This document shows, in pieces, positions 56,251 to 64,000 of a stretch of DNA of 64,000 nt; position 1 is the first letter of the stretch; the number at the start of each line of letters is the position of its first letter. The DNA is from Saccostrea echinata (Eukaryota): the NCBI RefSeq assembly GCF_033153115.1, contig NW_026889778.1, positions 23,250,001 through 23,314,000 of the forward strand, given 5' to 3'. A program made the translations under genes and the position numbers. The notes below the pieces were generated by a model. That model was not told where the DNA came from. It did no database searches and worked only from the letters and a program-made list of their open reading frames with translations.

Positions 56251-59200
56251 ATGGAATTCTTTCCATCAATTCTGCTTTTGAATGTGCTTGGATATATGTC
56301 TTGTTTTCTCCAATCAAAGAGGATCCAACTAGATGGAAATGGTTACACTGGTGTGACTGTAGCAATATCTAGTAAACTGGACCCTACTGAAATTCATATA
56401 CAGAGACTAAAGGTGAGCTAAAAAAATCTTTTGATGCAAAGGCTATTGCATGTATTTCGTGCTCATTTCTGCATTTTCTATGTAGAGATAAAAAATGATA
56501 TTTGTACGGTTTGCATTGTATTAATACACCAATATCAATTGCGTATTATATGCATTTAGAAACTTTTACTTAAAAAATCGCCTCCTCGTGGAATTATTAT
56601 TTTTCATAATCACAACCTTGCTGATTGCATAAAGAGAGTACATATGAATTTCGTAAGATTAATTTTCTTCGTTAAAATCGAAATATTTCTTTGGACGACT
56701 TACAATGGGAAAGGACGTCTCGATGTCTTTATTGTTAAAGACCAAAGTTAAATAGACTTTATAGTTCAATTAAATAATTTGTTTTCAGAATTGAAGTTTA
56801 TTGTCCATTTTAATCCTTTCCTCTAAATAATCCTCTGTGTAAAATATTTTGTAAGGAAATATAATGGTAGAATGTCAAAAATATTATGATTATTTTGATT
56901 TCATCTGTGAGACTTAAGCAAATAAAAGAAAATGTCTAAACAACTATTTTGAACAAATATCTCAAAGTCAAATAAAAGAGATTTGCATAATATAGCCTGA
57001 AAAAATTGCGCAATAAATCAAAATTTGAAAGAAGATAAAGTGATTGATTTATCACTTCAAGAATGAATTATTTCAAACGACAAAATGACAATTGCAAATT
57101 CCCATCTGTTAAAGAGAAATGGCTTTAGCAAAGTGCATCGCGTTGTTATACATACTTTTATCATTCATTACTTTTAAAGTTTCAAAGATACTACAAATTA
57201 GTTTTATAGCAAAAAATTAGGAATAAAATGTTTTTCTAACAATATTTTAGCTGTAAAAATTAGGATTCATTTTTAAAAGGTTCCTAAATGTGGAATTAAT
57301 CTGCCCAATTTGTTGAAAGTAACATCATGCATGCATCATTAATAATAGCGTTGAGATTAAATAACATCTACATGTATTATATTAACAATCATGGCTTGGC
57401 CATGAAAATTAATGAATTTACATTTGTTTCAAAGAATTCTAAAGGAAATTACAGTGACACATTTTCAGAAATACAATTTATACATTGTAACAACTACATG
57501 TAAATGCCGACTTCATGTTGATTTTAAAAATTAATTTACTCCGTCTTGTCCTCGTTACTAGTAAATGCATTGTTTGTTTCCATTTTGTAGAATAAGAAAT
57601 TCTCACCTGTGCTTGTTTATACCTTTGACAAATGATTTCACACTTCACCTGTTCATGTCATACAATTTTATAGATCTAATCTCTTAAGCCTATCATATCA
57701 CAGTTGTATCTGTCGGAAAATAAGAGTGTCATACTTAATCATTTCCTCGGGCAAAGTGCAAAATTAACATTCTAAACCTAATTGCACTAATTTGTTCCTG
57801 AGAGTACAATATACATCAGATGTAATTGTCAAACATCGTGCTACTGCTCTTTCGGTGTAGAGAGTGTCTTATGTTCGAGTAGATTGACGTTTAATATGGT
57901 GCTTAATTTTGCACAAGTGAACCTTATTCTACTCATGATAACTTTGCTAATGTATATAAGAACTGAGTTACATGTACATGTAAGTGAAAATTACATACTG
58001 GTTATCAGCGTAAGTGTTTAATCTAAAAAGAAATCTAGGACCATCATTTAGCAAATGACTGTAAAATCTGCAGTAAATAGAATAAGATAATAAATGTCTG
58101 TCGAGTATAGTATATATTTGTTCTTGTGCGTGTCTCTTTGACATTTCTTCTCCATTCAAAGAAATAAATTAAGTTATTTAGATAATCTGTACATTTTCAT
58201 AATATCATTTTGCAGAACTTACTCACGGCTGCCTCTGCCCAGTTGTACAAGACAACAAAATACCACCTATATTTTAAAGATGTCACCATAGTTATACCGA
58301 AGTCATGGCCGAATAATTTCAGCAAAGAATTTGTAAGTGGACCACAACTTGATACGGCCCACATTATTGTGGACAAACCCAATCCACTGGTGGACAACAA
58401 GCCATACGTTTCTGGAATGACCGGGTGTGGGCATCCTGGAAAATACATATATTTAGAACCTATCACAGTACAAGTTCATCCGGCAGAGGGACTTGCAGGT
58501 GCATGATATATCTTTTTTATTAAGGAAAGCAATAAAAATAAATGTTGATGAACATGTTCTGTAACGGTTTTACTATGCACTTGTGCTATGATAAAATTCA
58601 TACGGTTGTAAATATGAAACACCTATTACTGTCACGGACTGAGAAATGCCACATACAAATCATACGCTTAAAAATCTTAAATACATTTTCAGTGTGCTGA
58701 TTTTCTCCTTTTTTTTTCATAGATAAGATACTGGTTCATCACTGGGGCCATTTCAGGTGGGGGTTATTTGACGAACATGGCGATAAGGAAGCACCCATCA
58801 TGGGAACAAATACAAACCCTTGGTTTTACTCTACTGAGGGGACATTCAAACCCAATATGTAAGTTTAAATTTTACTACAATAAAAAATCTTTAACAGCAA
58901 AGCCTTATATGTTTGACATGTTTGTTTCTTTTTAAACAGGCAGAATACTCACCTTACATCATGCTTTTTATGAGCTTTTTGTTCCGTGATTTTAAAGATA
59001 TAATTATTATTTTTTAATTAAACTACGACAAAAAAGATTTACACTACAAATATGGAAGCAGGCCATGACCTTATTTTTTCTGTATGTTGTATGAATAATG
59101 TCGAAATAAAATTAATGATCTGTAATATCTTACATCAGAATCGGTGTAATTCTTCAGATGTGCTAAAAATATCAAGGGTCAAAACCACCTAAAATACTGC

Positions 59201-62200
59201 CAGAGCTTCAGACAGTGTCTTCTGGACGATAATGGTTTGCCAGAAAAGGATTGTAAATTCTGTGTCGACGAACGGGATAATACTGCAAAAGGCTCTATCA
59301 TGGGGAAACCGGAGATATCTAGTGTTGGTATATATAAGAAATCTTTGTTTAATGATAGAAATATTCAATCAAACTTGACAATGTAAGAGCATCTTATTAT
59401 AACGCTCCTGTGATGAGTACTAAATAGTCGTTCATTGGTGATTTACTTAAAATATAAAAATTAAAACTGGATAAATTCATCCAATATCTTATAAACATGA
59501 TCATATATGAACCCTATATCACTATTTCTAAGCATAGTATCTAAACATGCATAATTAACACTCTAAGTGTATATATATATCTTTTTTTTTATTTAAAGCA
59601 TTAAGCATTTGTTGTATTTTATTGTAACATATCAAATGGTGTACCTTTTTCATTTGTATTCAAGGTGGTTGAATTTTGTGACGATGAAAATAGTGATGTT
59701 CCACACAACAGAGAGGCGGACACTCCTCATAACAGATTCTGTCAAGGAAGAAGTGCCTGGGAAATAATGAGACTTCATTCTGACTTCAAAGGTCAGTTTA
59801 TTTATTGATTTAACATTACATATATTTTTAGGGAAATCCAGACCCAAAAATTTTTAACTATGCAAGCATTTTCATCAACATATGTTTTGCATATTAGCCT
59901 TAATTTTTCTTTAGCAATTTTGTTTGTATGTAGATACAAAACCAGGGCCTCCATCACAGAACACAGTGCCAACATTCAGAGTTGTTCAACAGCGGACGGG
60001 TCAGAAAGTTGTTTTAGTATTGGACAAGTCCGGAAGTATGAACAGTTACGATGTAAGTTCCGGAACCAATTTGTTCAATACCAATAACGGTCTACATCTA
60101 TAAGACAATAAATGATAGAACAAGTGTTTTATTTTTATTAAAGTTTTTTGCATAATTGTAAAAAGTTGACTGGCTTTATGCTTCATGATATTCATACTTC
60201 CTCTAGGACAGTAAAACAACAAACCCTTTGCGAAAGGTATTACAATACCTATGAATATTACTTCCTCTCTGTCTCTATTCCAATATCTCAGTTATATTCC
60301 ATAATAAAACTCACAAATCTCAATTTCTGTCTTCACTTTTAATATTTGATCAAGCATCATTGTACTACTATTCCTAACTCTTTTAAATCATTCTTACCAA
60401 TAATTGCAGTGTATAATTAGAAGTAATGTTGAATGTTTGAAACGCTTAATTAGTATATTAACCACGATTTTTGCATATCGAAGGAATTTAAAATACTTTA
60501 CAAATACTTGTCTACTTACATATATTTAAGCTTAGAAGATATATGTTTACTAGACTAACTTTCCCTTGTTAACAAAATCGCATGCATAGCACTTATCTGT
60601 ATTATATATCAATAATCGCTCAGTCTTACTTTACCGGTACCGTTTTTAATTTTACATTTTTTTCTGCAAAAGAAAATTGTAGTGAGATAATGAGAGCTCC
60701 TAATAAATCATTTAAAAATTATGATTGAAAACAATATCAAGTTTCATCAAAATATTTTTTATCTTTTTAAAGCAGAGAATAAACAAATTGAAGGATATAT
60801 CATCCAATTATATCAGAAACTGGTCACCAAATGCTACATCCATTGCCGTGGTAACATTTAACGAAACTGCCAGTGTGGTGGCTCCATTAACTACTGTGAC
60901 GTCAGAACAAGAGAGACAAAGCTTAGTGACGTTGGTGAAGAACATCAAAGCTCTTGGTGCAACTTCTATTGGAGCTGGTCTACAAAAAGCATTAAAGGTA
61001 TATTGAGTAGATTTAGTATCAATTCGAGGCTAGGGAAATGACTATAAATTATTTCTATGAAGAACAAAGTGTAACAAGATTGGAAGAATTGATTTAAGTA
61101 ATAACAAGATGAAGATGAAAAATCATGACATTGTTTATTGTTTTGCAGTTATTAAAAGAAGATAGTGACAACATTACGGGAAGCGAAATAATTTTGGTAT
61201 CTGATGGCGCCAATACAGTTCTTCCTGGACCGGATGAAGTTAGAGGGGAAATTCTAGTCGAAGGTGTAATCATCAGATCTGTGGCTATTGGGAGGGAGGC
61301 GGATGCAAAAATTGATAAACTAGCAAAGGACAGTGGCGGATTTAGCTTCTTTTACTCCGGAAATGAGCGGTCTACAGCTCTTGCAGATATTTTTCTTGGC
61401 ATCGCTGCTTCTTCTTCTGATGAAGAAGGGAAGATGTATCAAGTAAGTGGGCCGTAATAATAATGCATAAGCAAAGTATGACAGGTGAAAATTGGAAAGT
61501 AATTGGCATTAAAACATATTGGCTAGAAGTCTGAGGATTTTTAATAAGTTTCTCTGCTTGAAGAATTCTTTTGCCCATCAGATCTGTTCAAATAAAGAGC
61601 CATTCTTCCTTTCATAGGATATAAAGTAGGAAAAGTTTAAATTTAATAATAAATACACGGAAGACTTATTCAAAATTATTTTCTAAAGAATCACTTGGCA
61701 AAAAGAGTCAAAACTTTATTATATTAAGGTTTCTTCATAGATTGTAAGTTCAAGTTTGTTAAAATCTGGAGCTTTGACGGGGTCACCATAGGTGTCACCC
61801 CTTGGCATAAAAATATCAGAGGAAAAATCTCTCACATGCCAGTAAGTGGAAATGACAAGAATATCATCCCAATATAGTGGTGTTTTTCAAATTTGTTCAA
61901 ATCACTGCATTATCATAAACGGAAAAATATCTTTATTTTTTTTCCAAAAAGTTCTTCTAAAGACTAACTGGACTACAATAAGTCAAATGCAAGCATCCCC
62001 TCATAGTGTGGATTCAAGTTCGTTCAAATCATAGCCGCTTAGAATAGGATGCTGCCTCAAATGGGGGTCAACGTTTTATATAGGAATGTATATGAGGATG
62101 ATCTTTTTTTCTTTTGTACATGGTCCAACAATGACCATGCATATTATGATGTAAACATCTCCAGGTAGTAAAGATTCAATTTTAAACAGATCTAGGATCC

Positions 62201-64000
62201 CATGACTTGAATTGGGGAACAATAAGACATCATATATCACATAGTATATATTTGAAGAAAAAGTTGAAAATGTCTCCTTAAAACATTGTCACAATTTGTC
62301 ATACAATAATATGAAAGTATTCCAGTATAGTGCAGATTCCTGTTTGTTCAAATCATGATCCCTGGATCCAGTGCTTTTCATATTTTCTTAGTCTTCTGCA
62401 GTGATCAATAAAGTTTTCTTGAATCAAATGGTTTTCCTTAAATATTTTTTTTTCATGCAACAATAATTTGATATTTTGCCATTTATTCACCATTTAGCTA
62501 GAGAGCAAATCAGTGAATGTGACCAAAGAGCAGAATTTCACCACATCGATAACAATTGACTCTACCATTGGACGGGACACCACTATCCTGCTAATGGGGC
62601 CAGGGATTGATTTCACTGTTGCAACATTATCAGGTCCTGGGAATAGTTTCCTTACTTCTGGTGCCTGTACAGATTCGTGTAGCTTAAAGATTGAAGGAAT
62701 AGCAGAGGTAACCTATAACAAAATATTTTGTCTGTTATATAGTACACTGCTACAAACAGCTTGATAATTCTAATATAAATCATATGTTTTTATTTGTTTT
62801 AGATAGGTGATTACGTAATTGAAATTTCGTCATCATTTGACGTCATTCTGACACTGACGGCACATTCCTATCCTAGGAATCCTTCTGAAGATGTTTTCAC
62901 TGCCACTGCTTGGACATCGACAGACTCATTCGACTTTTCACCATCTTCCCCGATTGTACTTTATGCTTTAGTTCAGAAAGGAACATACCCTGTCTTCGAT
63001 GCTGATGTCAAAATATTTGCAGAGGATGAAAATGGTCACGTGATCAATGTAGACCTAGCTGATGATGGTCTAGGTGAGAGAAGACATCTTGTCGTCATTA
63101 CTTTGTTCTACAGAACTTATATTTATAGGGCTTTCTTATCGGTTTCGCGACGGAAGTCCTGAAAATAATGTCTGTGTTTATTTTGTAGGTATGGATTTAA
63201 TTAAGGGGGATGGTCAATATACAGGATTGATATTGCCTTCTCGAATCAAATCGAGTGGACGACACAGTCTCAAACTTGTAGTGACTGGCAAAGATGGTGA
63301 AACAAAAATTCTGCTACCTGAACTGAAAAGGCGAAAAAGGCAAATACAGGATGAAATTGGTATATAAACCATTCTATGGAATTTTATTGAACGTATCTTT
63401 ATAATTTTAGCCTATTACAAATGTTTATCATGCACTTATAAAATATTCAGACATAATATATTTCTACTCAATACAGATGTGTCCTTCCGCGACGCGACAT
63501 ATAACCCTTCAATTGAAAAAAAAAATACCAACTTGTCCTTCTTTATTAAATTACAGATTGGTTCCTCTTGGGAAATTAGAGCAGGTTTAAAACTTTAATG
63601 ATTTTTCTCCCTTTTTCAGCAACCTCTAATCTCAAAACAGAGAACGTGGGTGGATTTAAGAGGGTTGCAGCTGGAGGGACATTTACTGTTCAGAATTACA
63701 AACCTGTAACAGAGGATAGGATGCCACCAGCCAGGATTACGACCCTCAGACTTATAAGCGCCGAGAGTAATTCTTTCAATGTAAGCTGGAATGCCGTGGG
63801 TGATGATTTCACCATTGGAAATGGTAAGAAATATTTATTTTAGGTAAAAAATGTTAATAATTAGCGATAAGTTACATACTTCTCAATTATTTAACATACG
63901 GATGGGTTTTATCATTGTACAGTAATTCTTAAAGAATAATTATGATTATTGTGTTTGAACGTGTTTTTATTTCTTTTCCAGCATCATCCTACAAGATTTT
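56251..64000 (+). CDS. CLCA: Calcium-activated chloride channel regulator (CLCA family), 3'-incomplete
   Basis: Exons 56251-56412, 58216-58498, 58723-58858, 59158-59323, 59665-59791, 59934-60052, 60776(or 60773)-60997, 61149-61442, 62498-62707, 62803-63073, 63189-63359, 63620-63823, 63982-end; all GT-AG and phase-compatible. Signal peptide, GNGYTGVTVAI, GCGHPGKYIYL, HHWGHFRWGLFDE, VVEFC..HN..C.GRSAW, VWA with DKSGS, DDGLGMD..GDGQY, FnIII-like SWNAVGDD. Confidence 0.95.
61545..62370 (+). mobile_element. Decayed Helentron-type core repeats in CLCA intron 8
   Basis: Repeated GATTCAAGTT.GTTCAAATCA and GCAAGCATCC motifs as in 1835-2723. Confidence 0.6.

Follow-up and report, generated by a model that had tools for sequence, protein, structure and literature searches.

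A candidate furin-type cleavage site in the self-cleavage loop of an oyster CLCA protein with a substituted zinc motif

Introduction

The closest described relative of the protein studied here is human CLCA1, one of the 'CLCAsin' metzincins (PF08434; bioRxiv 10.1101/2025.10.18.683246). According to the available text of that preprint, its metallohydrolase domain is followed by VWA, beta-rich, inhibitory and FnIII-like domains, zinc is held by two His and one Asp in the presence of a Met-turn, and the Glu of HEXXH (Glu157) acts as general base. The self-cleavage point of CLCA1, Gly694|Ala695, belongs to the beta6-beta7 extension of its inhibitory domain, and the neo-N-terminus plugs the active site after the cut. 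In the accessible parts of two further papers, exchange of this Glu for Gln is reported to abolish self-cleavage of chicken CLCA1 (PMC9007345) and human CLCA2 (PMC10669480), and to impair that of mouse CLCA4 while a partial cut remains (PMC9007345). CLCA2 and CLCA4 are type I proteins with a C-terminal transmembrane helix, processed into a large N-terminal and a small anchored part; their cleavage depends on HEXXH wholly (CLCA2) or partly (CLCA4), and the text available for them describes no role for furin.

Loss of the zinc motif is a recurrent event in this family. In the accessible text of Lenart et al. 2013 (PMC3650047), HEXXH is lost repeatedly and independently, five times in the CLCA tree; motif loss is not tied there to the cleavage loop, and the words 'furin', 'mollus' and 'oyster' are absent from the main text. 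A precedent for exchanging one kind of cleavage for another is offered by SEA domains, in which autoproteolysis (Mucin-1) and furin cleavage (Notch-2, GPR126) are interchangeable in one homologous loop and the fragments stay associated, as described in the available text of PMC6954182; autoproteolysis in SEA domains needs no separate protease domain. The broken motifs of CLCAs and the SEA precedent are thus already published, whereas a pairing of broken motifs with furin sites in CLCAs was not met in our literature search. The same search, mostly outside subscription journals, found nothing on convertase processing of a CLCA: 'furin' is absent from the available text of PMC9007345, PMC10669480 and bioRxiv 10.1101/2025.10.18.683246, and PMC6851300 has it three times, in the available text with reference to VWF and MUC2.

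The oyster protein described here shares with CLCA1 the order of domains, the His, His and Asp zinc ligands, the Met-turn and, by prediction, the location of the cleavage site in the beta6-beta7 extension; with CLCA2 and CLCA4 it shares a predicted type I topology and a predicted division into a large N-terminal and a small anchored part. Unlike CLCA1, it has His in place of the catalytic Glu and in place of the Tyr of the family motif DEY, carries R-x-K-R at the site and does not conserve the Ala-hydrophobic plug. Unlike the SEA case, the change accompanies the decay of a zinc protease within the same chain, apparently several times within one family.

Results and Discussion

Gene structure and general features of the locus

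The window, that is the whole stretch of 64,000 nucleotides of Saccostrea echinata that was analysed, contains on its plus strand most of a CLCA gene (L005; Table 1). Eleven exons with AG/GT ends, from 58216 to 63823, join into a model of 734 codons without stops, which matches residues 55-788 of the NCBI CLCA1-like protein of this species (P0159) at 100%. Splicing around the site was followed in contigs from three public sequencing runs of two studies (X1, X2 and X3), presumably of RNA. Contigs of X1 and X2 bridge the joints 63073/63189 and 63359/63620 at GT..AG; those of X3 agree at the first joint and have two letters between at the second. All differences counted in exon 63189-63359 are accounted for, and none falls inside KRRKR in X1, X2 or X3. 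The open frame, the spliced contigs and the identity with P0159 together rule out an intronic or out-of-frame artefact as the source of the motif, and the elements on which the original prediction was built (KRRKR followed by QIQDEI, the strand GRHSLKLVV, the segment FKRVAAGGTF and the altered zinc motif HHWGH) were all found as it had given them.

Table 1. Coordinates of the CLCA gene features in the window
Feature	Position	Strand	Basis
First coding exon, with start codon and an N-terminus that is hydrophobic and resembles a signal peptide	56251..56412	+	ATG at 56251; residues 1-54 of P0159; joint to 58216 bridged by one contig
CLCA metallohydrolase domain, four exons (58216-58498, 58723-58858, 59158-59323, 59665-59791)	58216..59791	+	Pfam PF08434 on each; open frame
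Glu135, oyster-specific, replacing a conserved Thr	58456..58458	+	E in 6/6 oyster rows and 0/117 intact rows; T in 100/117 intact rows
HHWGH: catalytic Glu of HEXXH replaced by His (CAC), both zinc His retained	58737..58751	+	Sequence; general-base role of Glu from available text of bioRxiv 10.1101/2025.10.18.683246
DEH: third zinc ligand Asp165 retained, Tyr of family DEY replaced by His167	58770..58778	+	Alignment
VWA-domain exons (59934-60052, 60776-60997, 61149-61442) with D-x-S-x-S motif	59934..61442	+	Pfam VWA; DKSGS; 6PYO match
Beta-sheet-rich domain and first part of inhibitory domain, exons 62498-62707 and 62803-63073	62498..63073	+	All-beta in predicted model; names by analogy with CLCA1 preprint
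Exon with strand GRHSLKLVV (63257-63283) and start of cleavage loop	63189..63359	+	Sequence; contig joints
KRRKR, R-X-K-R convertase consensus (P5-P1); predicted cut 63340/63341 giving QIQDEI N-terminus	63326..63340	+	Sequence; consensus from available text of PMC3083689
Exon with end of loop, FKRVAAGGTF (63655-63684) and start of FnIII-like domain	63620..63823	+	Sequence; contig joints
Start of last exon; 562 more bases past the window; encodes transmembrane helix and cytoplasmic tail	63982..64000	+	Comparison with P0159

Membership of the CLCA family is clear from a PF08434 score of 197.4 bits (cut-off 25.6). The VWA domain scores 63.6 bits in Pfam and has the MIDAS motif DKSGS; in the predicted model of the orthologue P0001 it resembles the CLCA1 VWA structure 6PYO (rmsd 1.5) and is followed by beta-sandwich domains. 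Sequence search and the fold matches listed yielded no full-length CLCA structure, only the VWA domain. A hydropathy peak at residues 888-911, which coincides with a helix at 887-915 in the predicted model, marks a single C-terminal transmembrane helix; together with the hydrophobic N-terminus, it predicts a secretory-pathway protein in which the site is lumenal.

Several additional features were observed in and around the gene. A NAGNAG tandem acceptor at window positions 60773 / 60776 accounts for a difference of one Gln between the annotated isoforms P0158 and P0159. A short intronic repeat at 62327-62365 attracts many contigs and reaches very high depth. The cytoplasmic tail of about 65 residues encoded by the last exon, past the window, is rich in Tyr and is absent from the 923-residue paralogues P0002 and P0003. 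On the minus strand, a reading frame at 46760-47146 contains a YIDD motif and may be a fragment of a retrotransposon reverse transcriptase.

A substituted active site

In place of the HEXXH of active CLCAs, with its general-base Glu, the oyster protein has HHWGH. The zinc ligands His154, His158 and Asp165 and the Met-turn (SIMG) are present, and DEY has become DEH. Among 54 positions that are at least 75% conserved in 117 rows with an intact motif, six are changed in 6/6 oyster rows. The Glu is absent from all four paralogues on this contig, one of which has Leu there.

Position of the basic motif in the self-cleavage loop

Residues of the loop were indexed from the Gly that opens the GR-x-S strand. 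On this scale P1' of RRKR has index 28. The Ala of an Ala-hydrophobic motif that resembles the vertebrate self-cleavage site, a pattern of our own defined after viewing the alignments, is found in 65/117 intact rows and lies at index 24-28 in 56 of these 65. The predicted cut RRKR|QI would therefore fall 0-4 residues from the self-cleavage point of intact CLCAs, and the alignment by which the original prediction had placed the site near the usual self-cleavage position proves right. Among broken rows, P1' of the strict furin site lies at index 26-31 in 17/22. Predicted models agree on the location: the strands that precede Q716 of P0001 and A717 of an intact protein from a scallop are equivalent, which puts the basic site and the scallop GSG|AA motif after the same strand. 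The loop has low confidence in both models, which are thus silent on its docking in the active site and do not discriminate between readings.

RRKR conforms to R-X-[K/R]-R, the canonical furin consensus in the available text of PMC3083689, as the original prediction had stated for R-X-K-R. It is the only such motif in P0001, and its occurrence in the loop exceeds chance, because the background elsewhere in the ectodomains is 0.005-0.009 per 40 residues. A self-cleavage site, taken as small P2/P1 or basic P1 followed by Ala and a hydrophobic residue, is not seen; the oyster protein reads KR|QI. Among representatives drawn from the best 150 of 2,794 homologues, the self-cleavage-like pattern is found in 52/97 intact and 4/18 broken proteins. 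A basic P1 is common at the self-cleavage sites of vertebrates, as in QNR/ALY and RSR/ALY in the accessible text of PMC9007345, so a basic residue at this place is not new in itself; the full R-x-K-R is.

Conservation among oysters and paralogues

Three paralogues lie 345-420 kb downstream on the same contig (C29), and all four genes combine HHWGH or HLWGH with RRKR. Nine oyster proteins of four species all have Arg at P4, Lys at P2 and Arg at P1 but vary at P3, P5-P7 and P1'-P2'. The Arg codons at P4 and P1 alternate between AGG, AGA and CGA among the four paralogues, and we read this constancy of residues over changing codons as a sign of selection. On the tree, the sister protein comes from the pearl oyster Pinctada and combines HQWGR with RRKR; the pairing is therefore older than the oysters.

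A PF08434 search of the genome gave at least 17 matches, which fall in the C29 cluster and in a second locus on C25. The latter has HEFAT and HEFAK and lacks R-X-[K/R]-R in the loop, so motif loss without gain of a site occurs within the same animal. This divergent locus (G000:C25:21233400-21242500; L040, L041) has its first metallohydrolase exons in two tandem copies, has lost the second zinc His, and carries RRRRR just ahead of the VWA domain and RRLRSRR within it.

Some irregularities of annotation and decay were noted as well. Between two paralogues lies a decayed fragment of a CLCA exon, disrupted by stops and by a frameshift (G000:C29:23716904-23717184). P0006 has HHWGH where L019, the genomic paralogue matching its C-terminal half, has HLWGH, and the model of P0006 may combine exons from adjacent paralogues. 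In Magallana/Crassostrea, P0142 and P0143 consist of a CLCA fused after the membrane anchor to a long EGF-repeat protein, which is probably an annotation read-through, since P0141 is a stand-alone form of 999 residues.

Distribution of the site in animal CLCAs

In the surveys, a motif was counted as broken on any change at H, E or H of HEXXH, and inactivity was assumed from it. The first set, redundant and rich in shrimp sequences, comprised 140 proteins, 24 of which were dropped (region missing or mis-modelled); the strict loop site was found in 32/64 broken and 2/52 intact proteins. The second consisted of representatives at 50% identity, the best 150 of 2,794 at E up to 1e-30, less 21 longer than 1,800 residues and 14 with the loop or motif missing, truncated or out of range. 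Here R-X-[K/R]-R occurs in the loop of 8/18 broken and 4/97 intact proteins (Fisher p 2.6e-5, kinship ignored). Two of the dropped rows oppose the reading, the broken, site-less P0283 and P0302, which is intact and has RVRR. A compositional effect, by which loops of broken rows would simply be more basic, was ruled out: outside the site, K+R makes up 6.5% of broken and 9.2% of intact loops.

An obligatory link can be dismissed too. Among the rows of the tree described below, the strict site is missing in 22/44 broken proteins, with the C25 locus among the site-less cases, and is present in 6/117 intact ones. Looser motifs discriminate less (R-X-X-R in 27/44 broken and 18/117 intact rows; dibasic in 28/44 and 29/117). 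Broken rows without the strict site come from copepod-like proteins, one Daphnia clade, a spider, a hagfish, Lingula (which also has HHWGH), a starfish and a freshwater mussel, the last two having the near-sites RRQAR and ARRR. The site is found not only where the Glu is lost but also where a zinc-binding His is. In the bowfin proteins P0249 and P0329 the zinc motif has decayed to RLWAT, and the loop carries RVRR, displaced downstream by about 11-15 residues relative to the usual place.

Phylogeny and order of events

The tree comprised 161 rows, namely the 115 representatives of the second set and 46 earlier proteins hand-picked with their states already seen; motif and loop columns were excluded, and all tests were run on this one FastTree tree. 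Rows that are broken and carry the site occur at four places: oysters with Pinctada, sea urchins (Lytechinus, Diadema), bowfin, and decapods/krill. A single origin was rejected when 11 such rows, one with only R-X-X-R, were constrained to one clade in a 30-row subset (AU p 3.6e-47). The pairing is therefore wider than one lineage. The original prediction had proposed a swap from self-cleavage to convertase processing in this lineage, following loss of the catalytic Glu. This is supported in part: the pairing behind it recurs in at least four separate lineages, but it is neither one-to-one nor tied to Glu loss alone.

A four-state likelihood model, in which regain of HEXXH was disallowed, favours dependence of site gain on the state of the motif (gain rate 1.07 vs 0.09, p 0.00028), and none of 99 simulations under independence was as extreme. 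Support from such models can be inflated if a trait has arisen only a few times. Independent pairs on the tree gave a non-significant result (11 pairs, of which 3.1 point the same way, 1.0 point the opposite way and 6.9 show no difference; median p 0.625), as did those in the first set (3 pairs, p 1). In the counts of the second set the site is far rarer in HEXXH-intact homologues, so that the original prediction passes its check there, but the association is not one-to-one and is not significant in the pairs test. In the best model by AIC the gain rates are similar and it is loss of the site that is fast in intact proteins (12.6 vs 0.16). A site-first model fits about equally well (AIC 203.3 vs 202.6), and the models thus do not fix the order of events.

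Proposed processing of the oyster protein and alternative explanations

The sequence and its splicing are established, as are the place of the site in the loop, the constancy of the motif in oysters and the repeated coupling of site and broken zinc motif. From these features we propose, with a probability of roughly 0.6, that the oyster CLCA is a likely pseudoprotease, split by a furin-like proprotein convertase after RRKR in the usual self-cleavage loop; the genome has nine matches to the convertase P-domain. The protein would enter the secretory pathway, where self-cleavage in the ER would be impossible for it, and would be cut after RRKR either in the late Golgi or once it is at the surface. 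The predicted products are an N-terminal part of about 714 residues including the signal peptide (dead metallohydrolase, VWA and beta domains) and an anchored part of 267 residues, which would probably remain together until the former is set free by a ligand or by force; once freed, it may act through binding by its VWA domain and not through proteolysis. As to how such a state might arise, basic motifs probably appear and vanish in the exposed loop and would be retained once self-cleavage is gone.

Alternatively, the basic motif may be kept for another use, such as glycan or mucin binding or cutting by extracellular trypsin-like enzymes, while the protein exits the secretory pathway uncut. 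Uncleaved CLCA1 can indeed be secreted, according to the accessible text of PMC6851300, and many dead CLCAs do without the site. The predicted model suggests a flexible loop as well: residues 709-725 have no secondary structure, with pLDDT <50 at 715-718 and 720-722. Of the flanks P14-P7 and P3'-P6', which should be open to solvent in a convertase substrate, P7-P11 overlap a predicted strand at 704-708. Against another use stands the pattern of constraint, since P1 and P4 are Arg and never Lys in 9/9 oyster proteins and in the pearl oyster, with P3 and P5 free to vary, as is typical of a convertase site and not of a charge patch. Control motifs ending in Lys show no significant association with broken motifs either (p 0.085 and 0.2). 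On balance we consider such a use unlikely.

It is decidedly unlikely that the oyster active site has instead been rebuilt, with His155 or Glu135 as base, and still cleaves its own chain at the basic P1 or hydrolyses something else, although the retained ligands and Met-turn, together with Glu135, keep this a live rival. Glu135 is among the six positions changed in all oyster rows, His167 is likewise fixed in 6/6, and Glu135, His155 and His167 could form a rebuilt metal site. A basic P1 is, moreover, found in most vertebrate CLCAs, and P1' is Ala in three oyster rows. Position 155 is, however, Leu in one paralogue; P1' in oysters is Q, E or A as opposed to mostly Ala-hydrophobic in intact CLCAs; and the site persists in pearl oyster, urchin, bowfin and decapod proteins that lack zinc His ligands.

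The oyster site could also be real and its cross-animal pairing coincidental, the product of a handful of clades in which basic motifs drifted into the loop of a dead enzyme under relaxed selection. Only about four origins exist and the pairs test is non-significant; without oysters, Pinctada and Malacostraca together the dependence is lost (3/19 broken vs 6/117 intact, p 0.13). Yet it survives removal of the discovery clade, oysters with Pinctada (p 0.0024), or of Malacostraca (p 0.028), the acidic control motif shows nothing (p 0.68), and sites in dead clades persist across deep splits whereas the six intact rows with a site are each a single tip. Coincidence therefore seems very improbable to us. 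That another metalloprotease, or a CLCA paralogue with an intact motif, cuts the loop in trans is scarcely to be expected: wild-type human CLCA2 cleaves the E165Q mutant in trans at 1.5-6% in the available text of PMC10669480, but no intact paralogue was found among the C29 and C25 matches of the genome search (at least 17), where the six motifs read are all broken (HHWGH x3, HLWGH, HEFAT, HEFAK).

Conclusions

Cleavage of the oyster CLCA by a furin-like convertase remains our preferred reading. At the scale of the family we propose tentatively, at somewhat less than even odds, that animal CLCAs have repeatedly passed self-cleavage to host convertases as their own protease died (in oysters/pearl oysters, sea urchins, decapods/krill and bowfin, and more loosely in a starfish and a freshwater mussel). 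What CLCA function conserves at its core would in that case be the two-chain state and not the proteolysis of other proteins. The accessible text of PMC6851300 describes the purpose of CLCA self-cleavage as unknown, and the usual mammalian E-to-Q mutant removes self-cleavage and protease activity together, so that the two are inseparable by that means. Natural CLCAs that are cut and yet protease-less would, if the proposal is true, separate cleavage from proteolysis, and would provide a replicated example of a passage from autoprocessing to processing in trans during pseudoenzyme evolution.
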